Source: Scenedesmus sp. PABB004 (lineage: Eukaryota). Taken from it: a stretch of 64,000 nucleotides of DNA. A program made the translations under genes and the position numbers. The notes beneath the pieces were generated by a model, which searched no databases, had not been told where the DNA came from, and worked only from the letters and a program-made list of their open reading frames with translations. The number at the start of each line of letters is the position of its first letter. The stretch's first letter is position 1. Shown here piece by piece: positions 8,843 to 24,895 of this stretch. The DNA is taken from positions 620,001 through 684,000 of the forward strand of contig JABVCE010000017.1 of the NCBI GenBank assembly GCA_014905635.1. Direction: 5' to 3'.

Positions 8843-11171
8843 GGCCCGCTCAACTCACGCGATTGCAGCCGCCGCCGCCACAACCAGAGAGCAGCCAACG
8901 CACGCGGCTGCGCCAGGGCCCGGCCGCCGCCAAACAACGCGCCCGCTCCGCCTCACTCGGCACCCGGCGCGCGCGCCGCCGCCGCCGCGGCCAGCGCGCG
9001 GCAAACCGGCTTGTGCGCGCGCCACGCAGCCGCCTGGCAGGCGCGGCTGCAGAAGCGCGCGGGCGTCGCCGACTTGCCGCAGCCCCCGCACACAGTCCCC
9101 CGCCCGCTCACCGCCGCCAGCTCGCTGTGCGCGCCGGCCAGCGCCGCGCAGCGCGGGTTGTTGCAGCATGCGCGCAGCGGCAGCGCGGCGCACACCGCGG
9201 CGCACAGCTCCTCCGCCTGCGCGGCCAGCGCGGGCCAGCGCTCCAGGGCAGCAGAAGTGGGCGTGGCCGCGAGCGCGGCTGCGGCGGCCAAGCCGCCAAT
9301 GGCGAGCTGCGCGACCAGCGCCGCCGACGCCGCGTGCAGCTGCTCCTGCTGCGCCAGCAGGCGCTCCAGGCCCGCGCGCGAGGCGTCGACCGGCAGCGGC
9401 CCAAGCGCGCGCAGGCGCTCGCCCAGCAGCGTCGCCGCGTGGTGCAGGTCTTCCGCCACGGCGGTGGCTGCAGTCGCCTGTGGTACCGCCAGCATGGCGA
9501 GCTGCTGCAGCACCTCGCCAAGCACATCAGCGCCGGCGGCCGCGTGGGCGGCCGATTGCGCCGCCAACACCTGGCCCAGCAGCTGCGTCAGCACCGCCAC
9601 GCCGCGTGCCGCCAGCACCGCCCACAGCGCGGGCGGCTCGTACGCGAGCTGGCCACCGGCGGCTGCCACGGCTGCCGGCTGCACGTGCGCCACCGCGCCG
9701 CCAATGGTGCAGCCGGCGCGCACCACGGCCTTGCACCCGCTCGCCAGCGCCCGCAGCCGCTGCAGCGGGTCGGCCTCGGCCGCTGCGAGCGGTGCGGCCT
9801 CCGCCACGCACTTGAGCGCCGTGAGCAGGCAGGCAAACACCTCGCGCTGCAGCCGCAGGCCCGCGGCGCCGCCGGTGGTCACCATGGCCGGTGCGGGTGC
9901 CAGGCTGGGCCCGAGCCGCCTGATGGCGGCGCTCAGTCCCAGCGCTGCTCCCAAGGCGGTTTCTGGGCTATCACTGCCCGCCCAGCTCCTGGCCGAGCCC
10001 TCCAGCAGCCGGCACAGCGTGGAGGGGTCCTGCAGCGCAAACGCCGCCAGCGCCGCGTCCGCTGCGCGGCGGCAGAAGTGCCGGTGGCGGCGGCGGGGTG
10101 AGCGAGGGCAGGCAGGCATTCAGCGCGCCGCCTGGGCCACCAGGTGAGCCGCCGCCAGCACAGCACGCCACGCACCCTCCGCTCCGAAGCTCAGCAGCAG
10201 GACTTGGCCGCAGCCGATCAGGCAGCCCTTGGCATTGTGCCGCTGCTGGCCAGCCTGGAGCTCGTTCACGCCCTCTGTGCGCGCTGCCGCCGCCGCGCTG
10301 GAGCTGCCCGCCTCTGGCTCCAGCAGCGCGGCGATGGGCCGGGCGAGCGGCAGGAATGCGCGCACCACCGCCGCCGCCGCCGCCGACGCCGCCGCCTGGT
10401 CGTCCTGCGACCCACCCTCAAAGGCTCCGCGGAGGCGGTCCATGACGATGCCGGCAAACAACACGCCACCAACCAGCACGCAGCGCGTTGGGTGAAGCGT
10501 GGCCAGCTCCAGCGCCACCTCCACCGCCGTGGCAGCCAGCCCGGCGCGGCGTGGCAGCGGCAGGCTGGCGCCGGCGCCGGCGCTGTCGGCATCGGTGTCC
10601 CCAAGCAGCACGGCAGCTCCCATAAAGGTGTCCACGAGCAGGTCCTCGGTGGGCTCGCCCGGGGGCACTGCGCAGGCGTCCAGCGCCAGCGCGCGCAGCA
10701 GCGCGGCGTGCCGCGTCGGCACGATGGGCACGCTGCCGCCGCCCGAGCTGGTGCCACCGTCAGCAGCAGCCGGCCGGCGCTGCGCCTCGTGCCGGTGGGC
10801 CGCGCACAGCGCGAGCTCTGCCAGCAGCAGCTGCTGCACCGAGGGGTCTGACCACAGCGCCTGCTGTGCCGCTGCGCTCACACGGCCATGCTTCTGAACA
10901 GCACTCACGACACTCTGCGCGGTCCACCAGGCTGCTCTGCGCGCCTCGCCAAGAGCCTGCCCCACGGCGCGCGCTGTGGAGTCGTCGCCGTCCGCGCGCC
11001 AGGCGCCGGCGCGGCGCAGCACGGCGAGCGCCAGCCGTGCGACCGGCTGCGCCAGCGGCAGCAGCGGGCCCTCCAGCTGGCCGTCGGTGGGCCACGCAGC
11101 GCGCACAGCAAATGCCGCCGTCAGCAGCGCATCAGCTGCCAAGCACGATGCCGTCAGCTCAGCGCTGCTCC

Positions 11172-11206
<35 letters not shown>

Positions 11207-12007
11207 GCCTCCAGCTCCGCAGCGAGGGCGGTGCAGGCCGCGGCCAGCGGTGGCAGCATGTCTGTGGGCGCGTGGCAGGTCGACACGCAGTCAGTGAGGG
11301 GTGGGCAGAGCCGCGCGGACCGCAGGCGCCAGCTGCCGCCGGCCGCCGCTCACCCGCGCGCTCCACGTCGGCCGCCAGCTCCGCGAGGGGCGCACCAAGC
11401 ACAGCGCGCATGTCATCACTCCGGCTTAGCACGCAGCACAGGGCACACAGCGTGCTGGCAAAGCCCCTGGTGCCCGCCGCAGCCTGGCGCGTCGCCGGCG
11501 CTGCCAGCTGCTCCAGCGCGCGAGCGACGGCCTGCGCCAGCCGCGCCTGCACGCCGGGGGCGAGCAGCGCGCGCAGGTCTGCGCACGGCGAGCCACTGGC
11601 CTCAGAGGCCTCCGCCAGGCCGTCGAAATAGGCACGCAGCGGCTCCGCGGCGTCCGCCTCCGCCGCGAGCGCGCCGACGCTGCTCGCGCGCGCGCAGCGG
11701 CCCAGCCAGGCCACCAGGGCCGCCGTCTCGGGCCGCATACTGCCTGGGACTCAAGCGAGGCGCGCTGGAGGGGGCCGGTGAAGGCCGGCGGGGCTGGGCG
11801 GGGCCGCGGCGGCGGCGGGCGCTGCTGTCGCCGCTGCGCGCTGCCGCTCGGCGGGCGGGCCGCCACGACCGCTGTCAGGGCGGGCAGGGCACCCAAGGGC
11901 CGCGCCGGGGCTGTGGGGCCGGGGGCGGTGTGCGGGGTGGGGCGGCGGGCGGCGGCGAGGGCGCGGCGCGGTGCAGGCGCGCGGTTCAGGCGGCTGCCCC
12001 CACCGTC
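8843..12007 (-). repeat. Left arm of a ~3.2 kb inverted duplication (partner 21727-24895)
   Basis: The reverse complement aligns with 21727-24895 across upstream region, both introns, CDS and 3' UTR (e.g. ggttcaggcggctgcccccaccgtc at 11983-12007 versus gacggcgggggcggccgcctgaacc from 21727). Confidence 0.93.
8953..11738 (-). CDS. Ala/Leu-rich helical protein with C-terminal MYND-type zinc finger (copy A), 3 exons
   Basis: ATG 11738; GT-AG introns 11353-11262 and 10175-10062; C-terminal CCNNPRC...CGGCGK...[19 protein letters not shown] (MYND signature); stop 8953. Confidence 0.85.
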
Positions 12008-12010
12008 CAC

Positions 12011-13040
12011 TCACGCCGCGCCGCCCGGCGCCGCCGCGCCCGGGTGCGCGCCGAGCCACGCGCGCCGCCAGCGCTCGGCCGCCGCGAGCGCCGCGGTGAG
12101 GAGGTGGGGGTGCGCCGCCGCCGCGGCGACCACGCGCGCGTCGAGCTCGGCGTGCGCCGGCACCTTGGCCAGGGGCTTGAAATCCAGGTCCACCAGCGCG
12201 ACCTGCCAGCCAAACACCGCGCCGCTCGCGGGGTCGCGGTGCACGCCGCGCGCGCGCGGGCCGCCGGCGCCGCGCCCCAGGGCGGCCGCGCCCGCGCCCG
12301 GGGCCGCGCCGCGCGGCGCCAGCTGCTGCAGCGCGACCATGACGCCGCAGTCCTTGGCCGTCGCGGCGGTCAGGTAGCTCCGTAGCGCCGCCAGCTGCCG
12401 CGCCCGCCCCGCGGCCAGCAGCACGAGCGCGCCCGCCTCCGGCCCCTGCTGCTGCTGCTCGAGCTGCTGCTGCTGCTGCTGCCCCTGCTCCTGCTGTGCC
12501 TGCTGACCCTGCTGCCGCTCCTGCTGCTGCTGCGACTGCTGGTGCTGCTGCGCCTCGCTGCCGCCGCCGGCTTGCAGCGCGTCGGCGAGCAGCGCCTCGA
12601 GGCAGGGCGCGATCGCCTCCACGTCCCAGGCGTCCAGCCGCTGCAGCGCCAGCAGCGCGGGCAGCACGCCCGACGCATTCAGCGCCGCGCAGAGCACGCG
12701 GCACAGCAGCAGCTCCTTGGCCTCCGCCAGCGCCGGCTGGCCGCTGTGCTGCACCAGCTGCGGCGGCGGCGGCGGCGGCGCCCCGTCCGCCGGCTCTGCG
12801 AACCCTCGCAGCTGCTGCAGCAGCGCGGCTGCGGCCGCACGCCGCGCGGCCCACGTGGGGCTGGCCAGCAGTGCCTCGAGGTCGCTGCCGGCCGCGCCGC
12901 CGCCGCAGTCGGTGCGCAGCGCGCCGACCGTGCTCGCAGACGCGCCGCCAGTGGCGGCGGGCGCGCACGGCTGCGGCCGCAGCGCCTGCTGCTGCCCCAG
13001 CGGGTGCTGCTGCTGCTGCTGCTCCTGCTGCTGCTGCGGA

Positions 13041-13103
<63 letters not shown>

Positions 13104-14314
13104 GGCAGCAGCTGTGGGCTTGCCGCCGGCGCGTCGGGCTTGCCGCCAAAGACGTGGCGCCCGTCCACAAACACCTGCGCCACGGCGGCAGCGGGCGGGC
13201 CCGCCTGAGCGGGCCGCGCGCCCGCAGAGAGGCACGGGGCGGCGCCGCGCGCCGCGCCGCCGCGCCGCGCCCGCCGCATGCCGCGCGCCTTGAGATTGTT
13301 GCAGGGGCACTCCAGCAGCGCCGCGAGCGCCGCTTGCTGCCGCGCGAGCAGCGCGGCGGGCGGCTCGGCGCCACCGCCGGCCGCGGTGCCGCTGTCGCTG
13401 CAGCCGCCGTCCCGCGGCGTCATGAAGAAGTCCAGCGGACAGTAGCGTGACATGACGGGCGACTTGCCCTGCCGGCAGCGGGGCGGCCGCGCGCCGCGTC
13501 GGCGCGCCGCACGAGGCGCCGCCGCCGGCGCAGGCACGAGCAGCGCAGGCACGAGCAGCGGCGGCGCGAGCAGCGGCGGCGCGAGCAGCGGCGGCACCTG
13601 CAGGTGCTTGAGCAGCTGGTGCAGCGCGAAGCGCGGCACCCGGCGCTTGACCGACCCCGCCGCCACCGCCGCGCCGGGGGCGGGCAGCACGCCGCTCTTG
13701 GGCTTCACTTCAACGCACAGGCAGGGCCCGACGGCCTCGTAGCCCGGCGGCGGCGCGGCCGCTGCGGCGGCGGCGGCCTGCCGTCGACGCGCGCGGCGCG
13801 CGCGCGCGCGCGCGCGGGCGGCCGCGGCGCGCGCACCCGGCTGCAGCGACACGTCGGGCAGCAGCAGCGCCATCGCGCCGGGCTCGAGCCGGCGCCCCTG
13901 CTCCGCGAGCGCCGCGAGCAGCGCCGGCGGCGGCGGCACCGCCGCGCCCTCGCTCACCGCCAGCCGCGCGGCGCCGCCGAGCGCCGGCGCGAGCACGCGC
14001 CGCACAAAGGCAATCTCACGCTGCATGCCGTCTGCGCGCGGCGGCGCGACGCGGCGCGGCCGCGGGTGCGTGGGCCCGCCCGCCCGCCCGCCCGCCCGCC
14101 GCGGAGCCGCCGGCGCCGCCCCGCCGGCACCGCTGCTCACCCAGCGCCGGCCACTCTGGTATGACCGCCGACCACACCTCGCTCTCCAGCGCCGCGAGCG
14201 CCGCCACCCGGCGCGCCTGCTGCTCCGCGCCCTGGTCGGCGCCGCCGCCCTGCTGCCGCAGCGCCGCGGCGCCGCGCGCCTTGCGCAGGCGCAGCACCGT
14301 GCCGGCCTGCGCGG

Positions 14315-14366
<52 letters not shown>

Positions 14367-14612
14367 GGCGGCGGCGCGGCGTGAGCAGCACGGCCGGCGC
14401 GGGCAGCGCGGCGCCGCCTGGCCGCGGCCGCGGCGCGCGCGCACCAGCGCAGGGTCGGTGCCCGCGTAGGAGAGCACCAGGTTGGCGTTGCCCTCGCCCT
14501 TGGGCGCCCAGTCGGCCGGCCGCGAGGCCGCGACAGCGGCCGCTGCCGCCGCCGCGCCCGCCGGCCCGCCGCCCGCCGGCGACGCCGCGCCGCGCCCGGC
14601 CGCCGCGGCCAT
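12011..14612 (-). CDS. IPK1: Inositol-pentakisphosphate 2-kinase, multi-exon
   Basis: Family motifs W..KGEGNANLVLSY, VLRLRK, CVEVKPKSG, RFALHQLLK, SRYCPLDFF, NNLK-VFVDG, SYLTAATAKDCGVMV, LVDLDFKP; contains poly-Gln insertions. Confidence 0.92.
13005..13100 (-). repeat. (CAG)n poly-Gln tracts inside IPK1 coding sequence
   Basis: Long (CTG)n runs on the + strand, in frame with IPK1. Confidence 0.9.
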
Positions 14613-15193
14613 GCCCGCCCGGCGGCCGGCGCTCCTGGCGGGCCTCGCGGCGGCGGCGCGCTTTGCGGCGGGCGGCGCGAACGCGGCAGCGGCGACGTGC
14701 TCGGGCGCGCGCGCTGTGGGCGGCTGGGGCCGCCTCTAAGCGACGTCGCCGGCGCGGCGCATTCGGCGCGTGCGTCGGGTCAGCGCTGGGCGCGAGCCGG
14801 GAGCGGGCTTGTGCTGGCGCGGCGGCGGGGTCTCCGGAGCGCTGCGCCGCCGCTCCGCGCGACGCACGCCGCCGCCGCCGCGTGTTTGGTGGGTCTAGCC
14901 GAGCCGCCATGACGCACGCCCCCCTGCCCGGCGCAGCGCACGGCGCCTGCGCACGCACCCGCAGAGCAGCAGCAGACCGCCAGGCCGCCTCCGCGCGCAC
15001 CCGGGCCGCGGCTGGCGCCCCGGCCTTTCGCTGCGGCTGGCACGTCTGGAAACACATCGCCCGCGGCCCTCAGCGGCCGTGATGCGCGCCCGCTCGGGCG
15101 GGGGCGCCGCGAGCTGCCCGCGCGCCTAGCGCCGCAGCGCCAGGCGACCGCGTAGGGGCCGCGAGGGCTCGGTGACGCAGTCGGCGGATGACC

Positions 15194-18100
15194 ATGGTGC
15201 GTTGTAGCCGGCGCAGGGCGGCGCGCGGGGCCTGGGGCGGCGCCGGCGCGGCCATCTCTCCTGCGATGCGCGCTCCTGCGCCGCGGGAGGCCCGCGGCGG
15301 CGCCAGATCGGCCCCCCCCCCCGCGCCCGCAGGCGTCCCTGGTCACTGCGACCCTGCTGCCGACCTACTGGCTGCACGACGCCATCGCCCTGGGCGACCT
15401 GCAGGTGGGCGAGCAGCAGCAGGCGGCGGCGCCCCTGCCGCCGCCGCCGCCCACGGCCGCGCAGCGCGCGGCTGGCGCAGCCCCCGGCGGGCCCCCGCGC
15501 GTGCGCAAGCCCCTGGAGGCGCGGCGCGCCGTGCCGGGCGGTGGGTGGGCGGCGGCAGCGCGCGCAGCGGCGCCGAACGCAGCGGCACCCCGCCGCCGCC
15601 GCCGCCGCCGCCCGCAGCTGGCGCGCGTGCTGCTGCAGGACGTGCTCAACTTCTCGCCCGAAAAGCTCATCCAGATGCCCAACGGGACCTCGTACACGCC
15701 GCTGCACGTCGCGGTCGTGCAGCAGAACAAGGAGGCGGAGGAGCTGCTGCTCGAGCACGGTGCGCGGCGGCGCGGCGGGTGGCGCGCGCAGCGCGGCGGC
15801 GCGGTGGCAGGCGGGCAGCCGCGGCGGCGTGCACGGGAGCGGCGCGCGGGCGTGGGCAGCCGGCGTGCGGCGCGATGGGCGGCGTGCGGCGCGCGGCGCG
15901 GCCGCGGCGGCGGGTGCAGCAGCCAGCGCGTGGCCGGCACACACGCCCCCCGACCCTTTCCCTTTCCCTCTCCCGCAGGCGCCCGGCCGAGCCGCGTGCC
16001 GGACGACTTCCGGGCGGCGCACGCGCCCAAGGAGGGCGAGGCGCCCGCGCCGCGCAAGTGCCGGCTCGTGGAGGTGCGGCCGCGGCGGCGGGCACGGCCG
16101 CGCGTCGTGTCCGCTCCCCCCTCCCCTCCCACCCACCCACCCACCCACCCCTCCCCCCACTCCACGCAAAGGTCTGGGTCACGATCAAGGCGGACGTGGG
16201 CGGCGTGGCCGACCTCCACCTCGGCACGAGCTGGCTGCACGAGACCGTGCGGTGCGCAGCGGCGGCCGCGCCAGGGGGCGAGGCGCGCGGCAGCCGCCGC
16301 GGCGCCCGCCCCGCGCCGCGGGCGGGCAGCGCGCGCGCCGACGCGGCCGCGGCCGACACGCAGGCACCGCTGGGGCGACGACACCATGCGCGCGATCATC
16401 GGCGCCGGCGCGCCGCTCGACGCCGGTGACGCCAAGGGCAACACGGCGCTGCACTTTGCGCTGGAGATTGGCGACCTCGACGTGCGCGCACGCGCGCGGC
16501 CGCTGCCGCGCCGACGCCCCGCCGCGCCCCGCCGCGCGCGCGGCCGCGCCGCCGCGCCCGCCGCTGCCGCGCCGCGCCCCGCCGCGCGCGCGCGGCCGCG
16601 CCGCCGCTCCCGCCGCTGTGGCGCCCGCCCCGCCGCCGCGCGGCGCGCCGACGCCGCCGCGCGGGCGCCGACGCCGCCGCGCGGGCGCCGCACAGACGTG
16701 CCGGCTGCTGCTGGACCTGGGGGGCAACATGAACCTCTACAACAAGGTGAGAGAGACACTGCACGGCCCGCTGTTTGTTGGTTTCTACCTGCTTTTTACT
16801 TGCCTTGTGGCTCGCGCCGCCTCGCTCTCGCGCGTGCCCCGCGCGCCGCGCCGGCGCCGGCGCCGCCGGCGACGCCGCAGCGGGCGGGCCGTGCGTTGCG
16901 CGGCGCGGCGCGGCGGCGCGGCGCGGCGGCGCGGGCGCTCACGCGCGCACGCACCCCTTCCCCGCCCCGCGCCGCCGCGCCGCGCGCGCCAGGTGGGGTT
17001 CACCTCCTTCAGCACGGCCTGCATGTTTGCCGAGGCCGGCATCGCCAAGGCCATGCTGCAGCTCGGCGCCGACGTCAACGGCGGCACCGCCAAGCCCCTC
17101 TTCCTCGCCTGCAAGGGCGGCATGGGACGCTTCACCTACAGGCGGGTTGTGGGCCTAGGCGGCTGGGCGCTGGCACGGGCGCCGGCACTGGCACACGGAC
17201 GCTGGGCGCTGCCACTGCCGGCGGAGGCGGCAGGGCGGCCGGGGCTGGGCGTGCTGGGGGCTTGAGCTGAGCGGGGGCGGGGCGCGCCGCCGGGCCGCGC
17301 GCCGCCGCGCGCCGAGCCCGCGCGCGCGCCGGCGGGCCTGCAGGAACCCGAGCGCCTCGCCGGACGAGCTCCAGGCCGCGCGCGCCGCGTGGGGGGCGGA
17401 CAAGGAGCTGCGCGCGGTCTACGTGTGAGCGCGCCGCCGCCGCCGCCGCCGCCGCCGCGCGCGCGCGCCGCGCGCCCGCCCCCGCCGCCGCCGCGCGCCG
17501 CGCCCCACCCGGCCCCCACCCACGCGCGCCCGCGCGCGCCCCCGCGCTCCGCCGCGCCGCCGCCGCCGCGTGCCCCCGCCAGCGGCATCATCCGCCAGAT
17601 GCTGGCGCACGGCGCCGACCCGTCGGGGACCGACGCCGACGGCAACCACCCGCTGCTCGCCGCCGCGGAGGCGGGGTTCAGCGAGATCATACCAGACCTC
17701 GCCGCCGCAGACACGTACCGGTGCGGGGCGCGCGCGTCGGGGCCGCGCGCGTCGGGGCTTTCGTGTGCGTGTGCGTGCGTGCGTGCACGTGTTTTGGGGG
17801 GCAGCGGCGGCGCGGCGCGGCGGCGGGGGCCCCGGCGCGGGGGCCGAGCCGCCGCGCCCGCGCCCGCGCCGCGCCCGCGCGCAGGACGGCGCTCGCTGCC
17901 GTGTCGGCGACCGAGGAGCGCGCGCGCAACAACAGCGCGAGCAGCAAGGCCGACGCTGACGCCGCTGGCGACGCTGCCGCCGGCGGCGCGCCCGACGCCA
18001 AGGCGGGCGAGGCCACGGAGGAGGGCGGCGGCGCCGGCAAGTCCAAGGTTGCGCTCAAGGAGGCCGAGACGCGCACGCGCCGCGACGCCGCGGCGGCCGA

Positions 18101-19199
18101 GGCTGCACGCGCGGTGAAGCTCGACAGCCTGCTCAAGACCACCGCGCCGTCGATCAACCGGTCCGCGCCGCTGCTGCGGGCGTGGCGGGGCGGGGCGGGG
18201 CGGGTCTGGGCCGCCGCGCTGCGCCGGCGCGCAGGGCGAGCGCGCGCGAGCGCGTGCCGGCGGCCGCCGCCCACCGCCGGTCACCGCCCGTCCCCGCCCG
18301 CGCAGGGCGAACACGCGCGAGTGCGTGACGCCGCTGGCGCTCGCGGTCAGCTGGGGCGAGACGGGTGCGGTCGAGGCGCTCGTGCGCGCGGGCGCCGACC
18401 CAAACATCAGCGCCGGGCTGCCGCCGCGGCCGCCCATCTGCGTGAGCACCGCCGCGCCGCGCTCGCTGCCGCGCCGCGCTCGCTGCCGCGCCGCGCCGCT
18501 CGGCGGCCGCCCCACGCCCACACGCCCGCCCACGCCCCCCCTCCCCCCAGCTCGCGGCGGCGCTGGGCGCGCTGGACATGGTCACCAAGCTCATTGAGCT
18601 GGGCGCGCGCTGGCCCCACGGCCGCGCCGCCGTGGCGGAGGGCACCGACGTCGTGAGCCTGCTGTCGGAGAACTACAAGGGACCCAAGAAGCTGCAGGCG
18701 AGGGGGCGCGGGGCGCGGGGGCGCGCGCGGCACGCGGAGCGCGGCCGGCCGCGGGGCGCGCCCGCCGCGGGGCGCGCCCGCTGCGGGCGCGGCCGCTGGG
18801 CGGCGCCGCAGGGCGCTGCTGCCGCGCCCCCGACGCCGCGCGCCTGACCCCGTCGCCGCGCGCCGCCGCCGCGCCGTGCGCCGCGCGCCGCAGCCGTCGA
18901 TGATCGTCAAGCTGCTGCAGGGCGCGGAGAAGCGCGGCGCGTCGGGCCGGTCCAAGCTGCAGAGCGAGGCGGCGGTGGCGGCAGAGGCCGAGGCGGCCGC
19001 CGCGGCGCGCGAGCTGCTGGAGATGGAGGAGCGCGAGAAGGCGGCCCCCGGCGGCGGCGCCAAGGACGGCGGCGGCGGCGGGGCGAGCAAGAAGAGCAAG
19101 AAGAAAAAGAAGGCGGCCCAGGACAAGGTCGCCGTCGCGGCGGCGGCGCGCAGCAGCAGCAAGCGCGCGTGGGAGGTGGACAGCGCCGACCCCGACGAC

Positions 19200-19230
<31 letters not shown>

Positions 19231-21212
19231 TCGGCGACGGCGGCGGCGCGGGCGGCGGCGAGGCGCCGGCGGCCGGCGGCGGCGCCGCCGCGGCGGCGCC
19301 GGCGGCTGGCGCGGGCGCGGGCGCGGGCGCGGGCGGCGCGGCGACCGCTGCCGCCGCCGGCGCGTCGCCGGGTCTGTTTGTGTTTTGCGCGCCGCACCCG
19401 GCTGCGGCGAGCCGCGCCAGGCGCAGCAGCAAGGGCGCGGCCGACGCCGCCGAGGCGGAGCGCCGCGCAGTGTCGCAGGCGGCGGCCGAGGCGGCGGCCA
19501 AGTCTGCGGCCGCGGCGGAGGCCGACGCGGCGGCCGCCGCGGTGTACCACCGCCAGCAGGCCGCGGCCAAGGCGGCCGCCGACAAGGCGGCGGCGGAGCG
19601 GGCGGCGGCCGAGAAGGCGGCGGCGCAGAAGGCGGCGGCGGAGAAGGCCGCCGCCGCCAAGGCGGAGCGGGCGCGCAAGGCCGCCGAGGCCAAGGCGCGC
19701 GCCGAGGCGGCGGCGCGGGCCAAGGCGGAGGCCGAGGCCGCGGCCAAGGCCAAGGCCGACGCGGAGGCCGCCGCCGCGCGCGCCGAGGCCGAGGCGGCGG
19801 CGCGGGCCAAGGCCGAGGCCGAAGCCGCCAAGGCCAAGGCCAAGGCTGAGGCCGCGGCCAAGAAGGCCAAGGCTGAGGCCGACGCCGCCGCGCGCGCAGA
19901 GGCCGACGCCGCAAAGGCCAAGGCCGAGGCCAAGGCCGCCAAGGCGCGGGGCAGCGCCACGGCCGGCGCCGCAGCCGGCGGCGCGGCCGGCAGCGGCGGC
20001 CGCGGCGGCGCCGAGGCCGGCAGCAGCAGCAGCAGCAGCCGCGGCGGCCGCGGCGCCGCCGAGGGCAAGGCGGGCGCCGAGGGCAAGGCGGGCGCCGAGG
20101 GCAAGGCGGGCGCCAAGGCCGACGGCGGCGCGCGGCGGGAGGGCGGCGGCAGCACGGCGGAGAAGGCCGCCGCCGCCGCGAGCCGGGCCATCGGCGCCAT
20201 GCTCACCCGCCCCGCGGCGGGCAGCGGCAGCGGCAGCGCCGCCGCGGCCGCGCCAGCGGCCGGCGCCGGCGCGCGCGGCGCCGGCGCGCACGGCGGCGAC
20301 GCCGGCGCCCCCGCCGCCACGGTGCTGCGCGGCGACGACTGGTGGATGACCGAGAGCGGGCAGGACTACGACGACGAGGAGCTGCCCGGCTGGGACGGGG
20401 CGGAGGCCGACCCCGCGACGCAGCGGCATCTCGCGGCGGCCGCCGCGGCCGCGGCCGCCGCGGCGGTCGCCGGCATTGCGCCGGGCGCCGCCGCGCGCGA
20501 CGGCCGGCGCGCCTCGGCGGACGGCGGCGGCGGCACGCCCTCGGCCGCGCTCAACCCCTTTGCGGCTCCCTTCACCCCCCCTGTCGGCCTCGCCGGCAGC
20601 ACTGCGCCCCCCACCGCCACCACCTCCACGCACGCCCCCTCCACCGCCACCGCCGCCACTGCGCCCGGCGGCGCCGGCGCCGCCGCCCGCGGGGCGGCGG
20701 GCGCAGCGGCGCCGCGCTCCCCCACCGCCGCGCCCGCGGCGGGCCCGCCCACCTCCTCCTCCAGCGACCGCGCCGCGGCCAACCCCCTGGCGCAGATGCT
20801 CGCAGCAGCGGCGGCCGACGCCGCCGTCGCCACGGCAGGCGGCGCCGCGCACGACCGCGTGCAGCGCGCGCTGCCGCCGCACCTGCTGTGGGCGCGCGGC
20901 AGCGGCAGCGCGCCCGGCGGCCCGCCGCCCGGCGGCGGCGCCGGCGGCGTGACAAGCCCAACCTACAGCGGGCCGCCGCCGCACGCGTCGGGCCCGCCCT
21001 CGGGCGGTGCCAGCGACGACGTCGCGGCGGCCGCCGCGGCGGCCGCCGCGGCGGTCGCAGCACAGTACTTTGGCCAGCAGCAGCAGCAGCAGCAGCGGCA
21101 GCAGCAGCAAGGCGGCGGCGGCGGCGCGCAGCTCGGCGCGCCGCCGTCGATGCCGCCATTCCTGCTGCCGCAGCAGCCGCAGGAGCAGCCCTGGGCAGGC
21201 GGCTACTTCCCC

Positions 21213-21243
<31 letters not shown>

Positions 21244-21719
21244 TGCAGGGCGGGCAGCAGCAGCAGGCGCTGCCGCACCATCTTGCAATGATGATGCAGC
21301 GCTCCGGCTCGGGCTCGTCCGCGGGGCCGCAGCAGCTGCAGCATCCGCCGCACCCGCAGCAGCAGCCGGGACCCGCGCCGCCGCGCGCCAAGATGACGCC
21401 GCAGCAGGCCGCGGCCGCGGCGGCGGCGGCGGCGGTCGCGGCGCAGGAGGCGGCCGCCGCGGCGGCGGCCGCCGCGAGCGCCGCGGTGAGTGAGCAGGCG
21501 TACGAGGAGCTTCAAAAGCTCAAGGAGGCCCACGAGACGATGACGTGCTGCGTCGTGTGCATGGACGCGCCGCGCAGCGTGCTGCTGCTGCCCTGCAAGC
21601 ACCTCGCGCTCTGCGAGGACTGCAGCGCGGGCCTGCAGGCCGGCGGCGCGCAGCGCAACGAGTGCCCGGTGTGCCGCGTCCCGGTGGCGCAGCACATCGC
21701 GGGCGTGTTCATGACCTGA
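15194..21719 (+). CDS. Ankyrin-repeat, coiled-coil, C-terminal RING-HC (C3HC4) protein; probable E3 ubiquitin ligase, multi-exon
   Basis: Ankyrin repeats (YTPLHVAV, DAKGNTALHFAL, GADVNGG..PLFLAC, GADPSGTDADGNHPLLAAA, TPLALAV..GADPNI); A/K/E coiled coil ~19450-19950; terminal CVVCMDAPRSVLLLPCKHLALCEDC...CPVCR then TGA 21719. Start inferred (ATG|GTGCGT, next exon from 15333; an in-frame ATG at 15188 is also possible). Confidence 0.85.
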
Positions 21720-21726
21720 CAGCGGC

Positions 21727-22538
21727 GACGGCGGGGGCGGCCGCCTGAACCGCGCGCCTGCACCTCGCCGCGCCCTCGCTGCCGCCCGCCGCCCCACCCC
21801 GCACACCGCCCCCGGTCCCACAGCCCCGGTGCGGCCCTCGGGCGCCCTGCCCGCCCTGCCAGCGGTCGCGGCGGCCCAGCCCGCCGAGCGGCAGCGCGCA
21901 GCGGCGACAGCAGCGCCCGCCGCCACGGCCCCGCCCGGCCCCGCCAGCCTCACCCGCCCTCTCCAGCGCCACCAGCTTGCGTCCCAGGCAGCATGCGGCC
22001 CGAGACGGCGGCCCTGGCGGCCTGGCTGGGCCGCTGCGCTCGCGCGAGCAGCGTCGACGCGCTCGCGGTGGAGGGCGCCGGCACGGTGCCGCTGCGCGCC
22101 TATTTCGCCGGCCTGGTTGAAGCGCCTGGGGTCAGTGGCTCTCCCTGCGCCGACCTGCGCGCGCTGCTGGCCGCCGGCGTGCAGGCGCGGCTGGCGCAGG
22201 CCACGCGCTGGAGCTCTTCGCTCACGCGCTGGAGCTCCTGGCGGCGCCGGCGACCCGCCCGGCTGCGTCGGGCAGCGTGGGCTTTGCCAGCACACTGTCT
22301 GCCCTGTGCGAGGTGATGGGCCTGTCGTTCGTGGGTCGTGAGGCTCTGGGCGCGCCACTCGCGGACCTGGCGGCCGAGGTGGAGCGCGCGGGTGAGCGGC
22401 GGCCGGCGGCGGCTGGCCCCTGCGGTCCGCGCGGCTCTGCCCACCCCTCACTGACTGCGTGCCGGCCTGCCACGCGCCCGCAGGCATGCTGCCACCGCTG
22501 GCCGCAGCCTGCACCGCCCTCGCTGCGGAGCTGGAGGC

Positions 22539-22576
<38 letters not shown>

Positions 22577-24895
22577 GGAGCAGCGCTGAGCTGATGGCAT
22601 CGTGCATGGCAGCATTTGCGCTGCTGACGGCGGCAGTCGCCGTGCACACTGCGTGGCCGGCCGCCGGCCAGCTGGAGGGCCCGCTGCTGCCGCTGGCGCA
22701 GCCGGTCGCGCGGCTGGCGCTTGCTGTGCTGCGCCGCGCCGGCGCCTGGCGCGCGGACGGCGACTCCACTGCGGGCATTGTGGAGCGGGCTCTTCTCCAG
22801 GCGCGCACAGCAGCCTGGTGGACAGCCCAGAGCTTTGCGCTGGCCGAGAAGCATGGCCATGCGACCGAGGAGGCGCAGCAGGCGCTGCTGTCAGACCCCG
22901 CGGTGCAGCAGCTGCTGCTGGCCAACCTCGCGCTGCGCGCGGCGCACCGGCACGAGGCGCAGCGTGGCCGGCCGGCCGCCGCTGACGGCCGCGTCGGCGC
23001 CGGCGGCGGCGGCGCACCCGTCGTGCCGACGCGGCACGCCGCGCTGCTGCAGGCGCTGGGACTGGACGCCTGCGCGGTGCCCCCGGGCGAGCACAGCGAG
23101 GATCTGGTGATGTCCAGCATCTCTGCAGTTGCCCGCCTGTTAAAAATCTCGCCGCCGACCAGCTGCGGCGGTGCCTCCAGCGCCAGCACCTGCGCCGGCG
23201 CCAGCCTGCTGCTGCCACGCGGCGCAGGGCTCGTGGCCGCGGCGGCGGAGGTGGCGCTGGAGCTGGTGGCGCTGCAGTCAACGCCAGGCGCGCTGGCGGC
23301 TGGCGCTGTGTGCGCCGGCGCCGCCATGCGCTGCCTCGTGCGAGCTTCTGTGAGTGGGCCGCAGGACGACCAGGCGGCGGCGACGGCGGCGGCGGTGGTG
23401 CGCGCATTCCTGCCGCTCGCCCGGCCCGTCGCCGCCGCGCTGCTGGAGGCAGAGGCGGGCAGCTCGCCCCGGGCGGCAGCTGCAGCTGCGAGCACAGAGG
23501 GCATGGACGATCAGGAGGCTGCCCGGCAGCGGCACAATGCTGAGAACGGTCTGATTGGCTGTACCCAGGCCTTGCTGAGAATAGAAAGCAGCACACCAGA
23601 AGGTGCGTGGCGTGCTGTGCTGGCGGCGGCTCACCTGGTGGCCCAGGCGGCGCGCTGAACGCCTGCCTGCCCTCGCTCACCCCGCCGCCGCCACCGGCAC
23701 TTCTGCCGCCGCGCAGCGGAGGCGGCGCTGGCGGCGTTTGCGCGGCAGGACCCGTCCACCCTGTGCCGGCTGCTGGAGGCGTCAGCCAGGATCTGGGCGA
23801 GCAGGGAGCTGCCGCACGTTGCCCTGAGCGCAGCGCTGGCACTGAGCGGGACCATCAGCCGGCTCGGGCCCAGCCTGGCAGCCGCGCCGGCGCTGACGAC
23901 GACGGGCGGCGGCGCGGGCCTGCGGCTGCAGCGCGAGGTGTCTTCCTGCCTGCTCACGGCGCTTAAGTGCGCGGCGGTCGGCGCCCCGCTCGCAGCAGCT
24001 GAGGCCAACCCGCTTCAGGAGCTGTGGGAGCTGGCCAGCGGGTGCATGGACGTGGTGCGTGCCGGCTGCGCCATCGGCGACGCCGTGGCGCGTGCGCAGC
24101 CGGCAGCCGTAGTGGAAGGCGGCGGCCAGCTCGCGTACGAGCCGCCCGCGCTGTGGGCGGTGCTGGCGGCACGCGGCGTGGCGGTGCTGGCGCGGGTGTT
24201 GGGCGAGGCGCTGGCGGCGCAATCGGTGGCCGCTGCGGCCGTGCTCGCCGGCGCTGGTGCGCTTGGCGAGCCGACGCCGCTGGTGACTGCTGCCGCCGTG
24301 GTCAAGGACCTGAGCGACGCGGCGGCGCTGCTGGGCACTCGCCTGCGCGCGCTTGGGCCGCTGCCGGCGGACGCCTCGCGCGCGGGGCTGGGGCACCTGC
24401 TGGCGCAGCAGGAGCAGCTGTGCACGGCGGTGGCGGAGCTGGCCGCGCAGCTGGACGGTGGCCTGGCCGACAACGCAGCCGCGCTCGCCACGGTGCAGGA
24501 GCGTGGCCCGCCGCTGGCTGCGCAGGCGGAGGGGCTGTGCGCCGCGGTGTGCGCCGCGCTGCCGCTGCGCGCGTGCTGCAACAACCCGCGCTGCGCGGCG
24601 CTGGCAGGCGCGCACGGCGAGCTGGCGGCGGTGCGCGGCCGGGCGACTGTGTGCGGGGGCTGCGGCAAGTCGGCGACGCCCGCGCGCTTTTGCAGCCGCG
24701 CCTGCCAGGCGGCCGCGTGGCGCGCGCACAAGCCGGTGTGCCGCGCGCTGGCCGCGGCGGCGGCGCGCGCGCCAGGCGTCGAGCGAGGCGGAGTGAGCGG
24801 GTCGTTTGGCGGCCGGGTCCCCGGGTGCAGCTGCGTGCGTTGACTGCTCTCTGGTTGTGGCGGCGGCGGCTGCAATCGTGTGAGTTGAGCGGGCC
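21727..24895 (+). repeat. Right arm of the ~3.2 kb inverted duplication (partner 8843-12007)
   Basis: See left arm; homology ends at gtgagttgagcgggcc (24895), about 20 nt after a TGCAA at 24871. Confidence 0.93.
21993..24843 (+). pseudogene. Helical-MYND protein copy B; 14-nt frameshifting insertion in exon 1 (possible pseudogene or N-truncated gene)
   Basis: Paralogue of 8953-11738 with introns 22392-22483 and 23603-23716. Extra acgcgctggagctc at 22203-22216 (copy of 22224-22237) shifts the frame. Exons 2-3 are intact with the MYND domain; the copy-A stop is CGA here, extending the C-terminus to 24843. Confidence 0.65.

Follow-up and report, generated by a model that had tools for sequence, protein, structure and literature searches.

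Introns less diverged than exons in an inverted pair of genes for helical MYND-like finger proteins of Scenedesmus sp. PABB004

We analysed a 64,000-nucleotide stretch of DNA from the alga Scenedesmus sp. PABB004 (contig JABVCE010000017.1, positions 620,001 to 684,000; hereafter the window, in whose numbering all positions are given). It carries two copies, A and B, of a gene for a helical protein with a C-terminal MYND-like finger. The copies form an inverted duplicate of a 3.17-kb unit, separated by 9.7 kb, and their introns and flanks are less diverged than their exons. The explanation to which we give a little more than even credence is that A and B belong to a lineage-specific family and are an old inverted pair, parts of which were homogenised by short-tract gene conversion while the coding sequence stayed constrained and exposed helix positions varied. 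Introns that are more alike than exons are easily taken for a mark of positive selection, as they were in an earlier note on this DNA; here they would chiefly be a sign of intron homogenisation. Unit anatomy, tracts and rates of non-synonymous and synonymous divergence (dN and dS) were read from the A-B pair.

Divergence of coding and non-coding DNA

Copies A and B are joined by a single BLASTN alignment of 3249 columns with 83.6% identity. Mismatches amount to 21/265 in the 5' flank, 65/385 in exon 1, 5/92 in intron 1, 188/1074 in exon 2, 1/114 in intron 2, 160/1064 in exon 3 and 13/109 in the 3' flank, which gives 413/2523 for the exons, 6/206 for the introns and 40/580 for all non-coding parts. 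Both intron counts, and the intron positions, reproduce what the earlier note had reported. Four-fold degenerate sites in codons with an unchanged amino acid differ at 80 of 468 positions (17%), six times the intron value; these sites are separated from the introns at p = 3e-8 and from all non-coding DNA at p = 3e-7 (Fisher test). Among windows placed within exons only, none of 2306 windows of 114 nt had three or fewer mismatches, and 181 of 2372 windows of 92 nt had five or fewer. When the two-intron mask was shifted in a circle around the unit, 5 of 3168 positions had a mismatch rate no higher than the observed one, and 77 of 3168 shifts reached the observed difference between coding and non-coding DNA. 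This confirms that divergence is lower in non-coding than in coding DNA, even at silent sites of the latter, and that the contrast is beyond chance.

The divergence is a mosaic. A two-state hidden Markov model (HMM), fitted by grid search to 1048 putatively neutral sites (flanks, introns and four-fold sites), preferred mismatch classes of about 4% and about 20% arranged in short tracts, with an uncalibrated likelihood ratio of 29.9 against a single class. Low-divergence tracts were found at 21727-21937, 22372-22578 (intron 1), 23577-23736 (intron 2) and 24838-24895 of copy B, and the intron tracts include adjoining exon sites. Five more low tracts lie inside exons (silent mismatches 0/12, 0/20, 0/26, 0/19 and 0/7) and coincide with amino-acid-invariant blocks. 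Within 10 codons of an intron, 1 of 23 silent sites differs, as against 7 of 22 at 11-20 codons, so that the low tracts cross the splice sites, as conversion tracts would. The introns are nearly identical in this pair specifically: in the NCBI model of paralogue P0006, intron 2 is treated as coding sequence, and the read-through stretch, as inferred from that protein model, aligns to the translation of intron 2 of A and B with 8-9 codons of gaps and low identity.

Selection on the coding sequence

Whole-gene omega (dN/dS) between A and B was 0.69 by NG86, 0.66 by LWL85, 0.55 by YN00 and 0.44 by maximum likelihood (ML). NG86 gave a dN of 0.164 and a dS of 0.237, ML a dS of 0.364. Taken as a whole, the coding sequence evolves under purifying selection. 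The earlier note had read the excess of exon over intron divergence as diversifying selection, an inference that is not supported, since omega is below 1 by all four methods (0.44-0.69) and dS in the exons (0.24-0.36) is as high as dN, the very outcome that the note had named as counting against it. In the MYND-like finger and tail, omega is 0.17 and yet the proportion of synonymous differences (pS) is still 0.14, which indicates that the exons are truly old. With old exons and introns that look young or homogenised, the introns are unusable as a neutral yardstick.

Codon columns were classed by their variability among six other paralogues, independently of A and B, and columns present in fewer than four of the six were left out, so that 838 codon pairs were retained. 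By NG86, omega was 0.38 in the 350 invariant columns (proportion of non-synonymous differences, pN, 0.069), 0.64 in the 252 two-state columns, 0.78 in the 135 three-state columns and 1.33-1.34 in the 101 columns with four or more states. For this last class the pairwise A-B estimates were 1.34 (NG86), 1.35 (LWL85), 0.87 (YN00) and 0.91 (ML), and pN (0.356) and pS (0.288) lie about one standard error apart. Codons with a single difference in the hypervariable columns comprise 35 non-synonymous and 5 synonymous ones. When helices were classed by structure, omega was 0.78 for variable and 0.40 for conserved helices. The most variable positions change at about the neutral rate, at which free drift and weak diversifying selection are not separable; the A-B comparison neither shows nor excludes diversifying selection.

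Helical body and MYND-like finger

The encoded protein of about 860 residues consists of an ARM/HEAT-like helical body followed by the finger. AlphaFold2 models were built from eight-sequence alignments, separately for exon 2 and exon 3. The exon 2 model has 12 helices and no strands (predicted local distance difference test score, pLDDT, 76.5; predicted TM-score, pTM, 0.77), and the exon 3 model has 13 helices and no strands (pLDDT 68.7, pTM 0.69), with an unreliable finger part (pLDDT 28-50, residues 295-347). The body is predicted to be an all-alpha stack of antiparallel helices, an ARM/HEAT-like solenoid. Structural neighbours of the exon 2 model are the ARM repeats of APC (3nmz_B), plakophilin (1xm9_A), beta-catenin (2gl7_A) and importin-alpha (2c1t_A), with alignments over 194-226 residues at a root-mean-square deviation (rmsd) of 3.2-4.6 and Z of 10.7-11.8. 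The best VIA match, to APC-ARM, has a Z of 11.8 and an rmsd of 4.3 over 223 residues; helical repeats need a Z of about 13 in VIA, and a lower value may reflect a common helical arrangement only. Foldseek against the PDB gave no match at E 0.001 or better (all E above 0.01, TM 0.15-0.29), all ESM Atlas scores were below 0.9, with HEAT/TPR-like fragments as leads only, and the exon 2 translations of A and B matched no Pfam family at E 0.1 or better, ARM, HEAT and TPR families included.

Eight Cys/His ligands in C4-C2HC order form the finger (C299, C304, C324, C327, C337, C341, H349 and C353 in P0002), and B has the same set. The first pair is C-x4-C and is followed by 19 residues, a gap longer than that of the MYND consensus. 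The Pfam family zf-MYND (PF01753) matches A with 20.3 bits and B with 20.4 bits, below its gathering cut-off of 22.7, and the match covers profile positions 12/13-39 of 39 only, the second half. Paralogue P0009 has PF01753 in its precomputed domain list, and a related module in Tetradesmus obliquus (UniRef100_A0A383VT77) is named MYND-type in UniRef; we therefore call the finger MYND-like, of a type that occurs in Scenedesmaceae. The last 87 residues of the encoded protein are 62% identical to the Tetradesmus protein (BLASTP E 4e-26). This match comprises a helix and the finger; both proteins have the finger at the C-terminus and share its unusual first Cys pair. For the other ~770 residues of A and B, no counterpart was detected in the Tetradesmus protein or anywhere outside the PABB004 family. 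A search of the exon 2 and exon 3 translations for signalling or effector domains (NB-ARC, TIR, kinase, F-box) returned none, only the MYND-like finger.

Alternating variable helices

Variability across the family is helically periodic, with an index of 1.56 against 0.98 +/- 0.08 in shuffled data (z 6.9); none of 500 local shuffles reached the observed value. For the A-B differences alone, 5 of 500 shuffles did so. Variability also decreases with hydropathy (rho -0.24). Periodicity of this kind is expected for any packed amphipathic helix. The peptide pair and the invariant block quoted in the earlier note, its spacing of helix differences at i, i+4 and i+7 in the quoted helix, and its count of about three differences inside the Cys/His finger were all seen as described.

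The twelve helices of exon 2 have mean entropies, in order, of 0.35, 1.40, 0.30, 1.32, (0.96), 0.27, (0.42), 1.43, 0.49, 1.26, 0.50 and 1.55, where brackets mark two short helices of 8 and 9 residues that were left out of the long-helix count. The ten long helices alternate strictly between near-invariant (0.27-0.50) and hypervariable (1.26-1.55), a pattern shown by only 2 of the 252 possible orderings of five conserved and five variable helices. All twelve together form 10 runs, and 62 of 924 orderings have as many. The alternation extends more weakly into exon 3, and the variable helices are still modelled confidently (pLDDT blocks of 81-94 in four of five). A solenoid with two helices per repeat has alternate helices on the same face, and the variable positions are therefore likely to make up a single face of the modelled solenoid. 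The earlier note's picture of a variable helical solenoid joined to a conserved C-terminal MYND-like finger is supported by the models and the helix entropies. Its interpretation as a whole fared unevenly: the helical body with the finger, the lower divergence of non-coding DNA and the periodic variability stand, and diversifying selection is not supported.

MYND fingers bind proline-rich motifs in partner proteins. For this reason an adaptor would be the likeliest function, with a common docking finger and a conserved core carrying a copy-specific helical surface; nothing shows a defence role.

A lineage-specific gene family

The annotation of Scenedesmus sp. PABB004 contains six paralogues with 57-71% identity, of which four share a single 795,618-bp contig; A and B share 625 of 840 residues (74%) and are themselves not among the annotated proteins of the collection searched. 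The homologues found with exon 2 were again these six proteins, and a search for near homologues returned none. When 1.84 billion representative proteins were searched with a profile, 77 matched at E 0.001 or better: the family's own cluster was alone in matching over the whole length, 75 of the other 76 matched the C-terminal module only, and the remaining one matched positions 86-252 (E 1.2e-5). Among metagenome contigs searched with exon 3 of A, 229 pattern matches contained two loci, both limited to ~27-30 finger residues, and none of 10 pattern matches in viral contigs was related. As judged from these searches, A and B are members of a multigene family confined to one Scenedesmus lineage. 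In the literature on Scenedesmus sp. PABB004 and on green-algal zf-MYND proteins, titles and the beginnings of abstracts held nothing on the family. The family is undescribed and confined to one lineage. Its lasting interest lies in invariant and hypervariable helices that alternate along a predicted solenoid with a shared MYND-type finger.

Paralogue P0010 is without ~120 residues of the exon 3 region, and its finger reads as frameshifted family sequence, which indicates that the family includes decayed or mis-modelled members.

Proposed gene conversion and its alternatives

In the history that we favour, A and B would go back to an old rather than a recent inverted duplication, their silent-site divergence being ~0.2-0.35. 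Interlocus gene conversion in short tracts between the copies, 9.7 kb apart, would later have homogenised parts of the unit, namely both introns with a few dozen adjoining exon bases, most of the 5' flank and the 3' end; some of the conserved exon blocks would have been homogenised in the same way. Exposed positions of every second long helix would have been free to vary at a nearly neutral rate. The introns would then look younger than the exons because they were homogenised by conversion. We infer conversion as the homogenising process from the distribution of differences along the two sequences.

The phenomenon is of a known kind, that of duplicates under gene conversion with diverged coding regions. 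In PMC3924837, primate red/green opsins and colobine RNASE1 are described as having introns and untranslated regions homogenised by conversion while their coding regions stay diverged, a pattern attributed there to Teshima and Innan (2008). Like A and B, they are neighbouring duplicates whose non-coding DNA is more alike than their coding DNA, which is credited to ongoing interlocus conversion. Conversion in the opsins and RNASE1 is proven by orthologues of other species, whereas here there is the pair only, and a few known functional residues mark their divergence peak, whereas in A and B divergence extends over most of three exons, silent sites included.

Several observations weigh against this history. 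Silent differences cluster weakly when exons are taken on their own (p = 0.12 in a sum-of-squares fragment test, p = 0.03 in a chi-square test over 30-codon windows), so the mosaic rests largely on the non-coding parts. The low tracts contain ~82% of the non-coding sites against ~24% of the exonic four-fold sites, and all four non-coding parts are mostly in the low state, an outcome that randomly placed tracts seldom give (the 5/3168 and 77/3168 shifts above). Because tract placement is non-random, neutral conversion does not suffice, and selection, constraint or conversion hot spots in introns and at the ends of genes would have to act as well. An omega below 1 should also make exons diverge more slowly than introns, and neutral conversion alone therefore fails to predict that the exons escape. 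The left edge of the intron 2 tract falls exactly at the splice donor, and conversion was read from the A-B pair. Selection against overwriting tracts, conversion that starts at gene ends or introns, overwriting from a third paralogue and constraint on non-coding DNA are all options that these points leave open.

Selection might keep a recognition face different by purging conversion tracts that overwrite it, so that homogenisation affects the neutral introns and flanks but spares the exons with their linked silent sites (Teshima-Innan type). We regard this as unlikely, though a serious candidate. The non-random placement of the low tracts, which hold non-coding DNA beyond what shifted masks give (5/3168 and 77/3168), makes such shielding of exon differences somewhat more likely, and the exons are diverged even though an omega below 1 should have let them accumulate mismatches more slowly than introns. 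The strict alternation of the ten long exon 2 helices, the confident prediction of four of the five variable ones (pLDDT blocks 81-94), the values for hypervariable columns by NG86 and LWL85 (1.34 and 1.35) with 35 non-synonymous against 5 synonymous single-difference codons, and a family that is young, multi-copy and lineage-specific all agree with it, and PMC3924837, cited above, describes a precedent. However, no test yields an omega significantly above 1 (hypervariable columns 0.87 by YN00 and 0.91 by ML, variable helices 0.78). The amino-acid-invariant MYND block is silently diverged too (pS 0.14) although it has nothing to protect, copy B is frameshifted, and MYND is the sole signalling- or effector-type domain found in exons 2 and 3. 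Quite unlikely, in our estimation, is a repertoire of solenoid adaptors in which the face formed by every second helix is kept different by selection that removes conversion tracts, while the invariant helices and the MYND-like finger dock every member of the family onto one partner. If true, it would be a recognition repertoire that is encoded in the genome and specific to the alga, and that serves either the choice of substrates or defence against viruses or transposons. To our knowledge, innate recognition systems of green algae are poorly known, and selection on the variable face, if seen in paralogue DNA, would make the family a rare candidate recognition repertoire in this group. If there is no such selection, the family would be an ordinary young one shaped by duplication, drift of exposed residues and local conversion.

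If A and B were recent duplicates (~3-5% diverged) whose exons had been overwritten piecemeal from diverged paralogues, by ectopic conversion or from intron-less cDNA, divergence limited to exons and the sharp edge at the exon 2/intron 2 junction would follow, and some 25-residue windows are indeed closer to a third paralogue than to the partner copy (10/39 for B and 5/39 for A; for example, B matches P0008 at 24/25 and A at 19/25). We consider this very unlikely, as silent mismatches in the exons are spread fairly evenly and not in large blocks, the hypervariable helices are without a near-identical donor (best third-party match 12-15/25 among the six paralogue proteins), and conserved blocks such as MYND also carry ~15% silent differences. 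PMC2474615 describes an exon segment switch in snake three-finger toxin genes, which have a conserved fold and conserved introns with exon segments alternately very similar and very different, as here. These toxins are small, secreted and in a documented arms race, whereas A and B encode an intracellular-looking helical repeat protein with MYND and an omega not above 1, and their variable segments are whole solenoid helices. Constraint on the non-coding parts is less probable still; it would make intron 2 a structured RNA (a hairpin that joins the splice sites, or a small-RNA precursor) and the flanks dense regulatory DNA. Intron 2 does fold into an end-to-end hairpin (B -69 kcal/mol, z -3.68; A -68.3 kcal/mol, z -3.30), as stable as which were 1 of 200 shuffles for B and 0 of 200 for A, and the 5' flank must also bear the 3' end of the upstream gene. 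But intron 1 is no more structured than expected (z +1.2), neither intron is matched by an Rfam family, and intron 2 at 0.9% divergence would exceed the constraint on family-invariant non-synonymous sites (pN 0.069). Low divergence also extends into adjacent silent sites of the exons, the counterpart of intron 2 in P0006 is shorter and has diverged greatly, and the hairpin consists largely of complementary GGC/GCC-type runs, which are common in the genome. Equally hard to credit is copy B as a decaying pseudogene whose relaxed constraint accounts for most of the excess amino-acid divergence. A frameshifting 14-nt insertion in exon 1, the loss of A's stop codon and an omega that still reaches 0.38 where the six other paralogues are invariant speak for it. 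Exons 2 and 3 of B, however, are open downstream of the insertion, the frameshift could be an assembly error, and departures number 22 in A and 14 in B at family-invariant columns (36 and 33 at near-invariant ones), so relaxed constraint on B is not the main cause.

Anatomy of the inverted duplicate

The G+C content is 70-84% in each 2-kb bin of the window, which reads as nuclear DNA of a very GC-rich green alga. No third copy is present in the window, where tblastn with A finds A and B only. The features of both units are given in Table 1.

Table 1. Features of the two copies and of the genes upstream of them.
Feature	Position	Strand	Basis
Copy A, whole unit (5' flank, three exons, two introns, 3' flank)	8843..12007	-	BLASTN to 24895-21727; inverted-repeat arms I1-I16
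Copy A exon 1, ATG 11738-11736	11354..11738	-	Gene model, 859-codon open reading frame
Copy A intron 1, 92 nt, GT..AG, phase 1	11262..11353	-	5/92 different from B
Copy A exon 2, helical body, invariant and hypervariable helices alternating	10176..11261	-	AlphaFold2 model, per-helix entropy
Copy A intron 2, 114 nt, GT..AG, phase 1, end-to-end hairpin	10062..10175	-	1/114 different from B; RNA fold
Copy A exon 3, stop 8953-8955	8953..10061	-	Gene model; predicted all helical
Copy A MYND-like zinc finger	9001..9168	-	Cys/His positions; Pfam zf-MYND E 5.7e-4
Copy B, whole unit	21727..24895	+	BLASTN alignment, inverted-repeat arms
Copy B exon 1, 14-nt frameshifting insertion ~22203-22216	21993..22391	+	Comparison with the model of A
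Copy B intron 1, 92 nt	22392..22483	+	Alignment to A
Copy B exon 2	22484..23602	+	Open frame, alignment to A
Copy B intron 2, 114 nt, same hairpin as A	23603..23716	+	Alignment; RNA fold
Copy B exon 3, stop 24841-24843	23717..24843	+	A's stop position read through
Copy B MYND-like zinc finger	24574..24741	+	Pfam zf-MYND E 5.3e-4
Inositol-pentakisphosphate 2-kinase open reading frame, upstream of copy A, co-oriented	12011..14779	-	Pfam Ins_P5_2-kin E 2.3e-40, profile 43-374 of 375
C-terminal RING-finger protein open reading frame, upstream of copy B, co-oriented	18657..21719	+	Pfam zf-C3HC4_3 E 1.4e-13, residues 963-1011 of 1020

With its GT..AG introns at the positions that the earlier note had given, copy A yields a clean open reading frame (ORF) of 859 codons in three exons without internal stops. 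The same model applied to copy B gives 2645 nt with 16 stops. The 14-nt insertion in exon 1 of B is a partial tandem copy of adjoining bases and breaks the frame, and the frames on both sides of it each match A. From the ATG at 21993, B would end after ~107 codons; in the downstream frame the next in-frame ATG lies roughly 100 codons in. Copy B is also without A's stop codon and extends 19 codons further, to 24843. Either the insertion is an assembly indel, or it is real and has truncated or pseudogenised the copy. The earlier note's account of the two copies needs correction on this point, since B read with A's model is not an intact ORF.

Three freshwater-metagenome DNA runs contain 7-8% of sampled words from the window. 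None of their reads, at 85% likeness, covers the insertion of B. Their exact contigs, few in number and 92-242 nt long, fall on copy A at 9658-10090, the rest being short low-complexity matches, and no paralogue-length pieces were found in them. No RNA run was listed as containing the sequence.

In copy A at 10590-10680 (compared with 23130-23180 of B), a stretch of eight codons is lost and neighbouring residues are replaced. The loss removes a short Ser-Pro-Pro-Thr-Ser-Cys motif that B retains and of which four residues are invariant in the six other paralogues. The sole A-B difference in the hairpin of intron 2 lies in its apical part.

Neighbouring genes and placement

Both copies lie directly behind an upstream gene. 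The stop codon of the kinase ORF is at 12011-12013 and homology between A and B begins 3 nt later on the side of copy A; that of the RING ORF is at 21717-21719 and homology begins 7 nt later on the side of copy B. A position immediately downstream of another gene thus seems to recur for this unit. A mobile unit with preferred targets, a 3' end or promoter in common, or two-gene transcripts, which are reported in green algae (PMC7896298), may account for such placement. As regards a transposon, no terminal inverted repeats were seen by eye at the aligned ends of the unit, and no formal test was made. In the NCBI models of the six paralogues, four run together with unrelated genes upstream of them and one with genes downstream.

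The kinase ORF contains long CAG/CTG-type (poly-Gln) repeats at 12508-13051, which draw a summed depth of 610-1614 from unrelated metagenome contigs as well as two sub-threshold Rfam matches. The high depth and the Rfam matches in this interval are low-complexity artefacts. At E 0.1 or better, Rfam gave three sub-threshold matches in the window, none of them in the introns or in copies A and B. The RING ORF carries a long, repetitive Ala/Lys/Glu-rich stretch at 19450-19950 (direct-repeat family D3, with an 84-nt register), followed by a poly-Gln region and then by the C-terminal RING.

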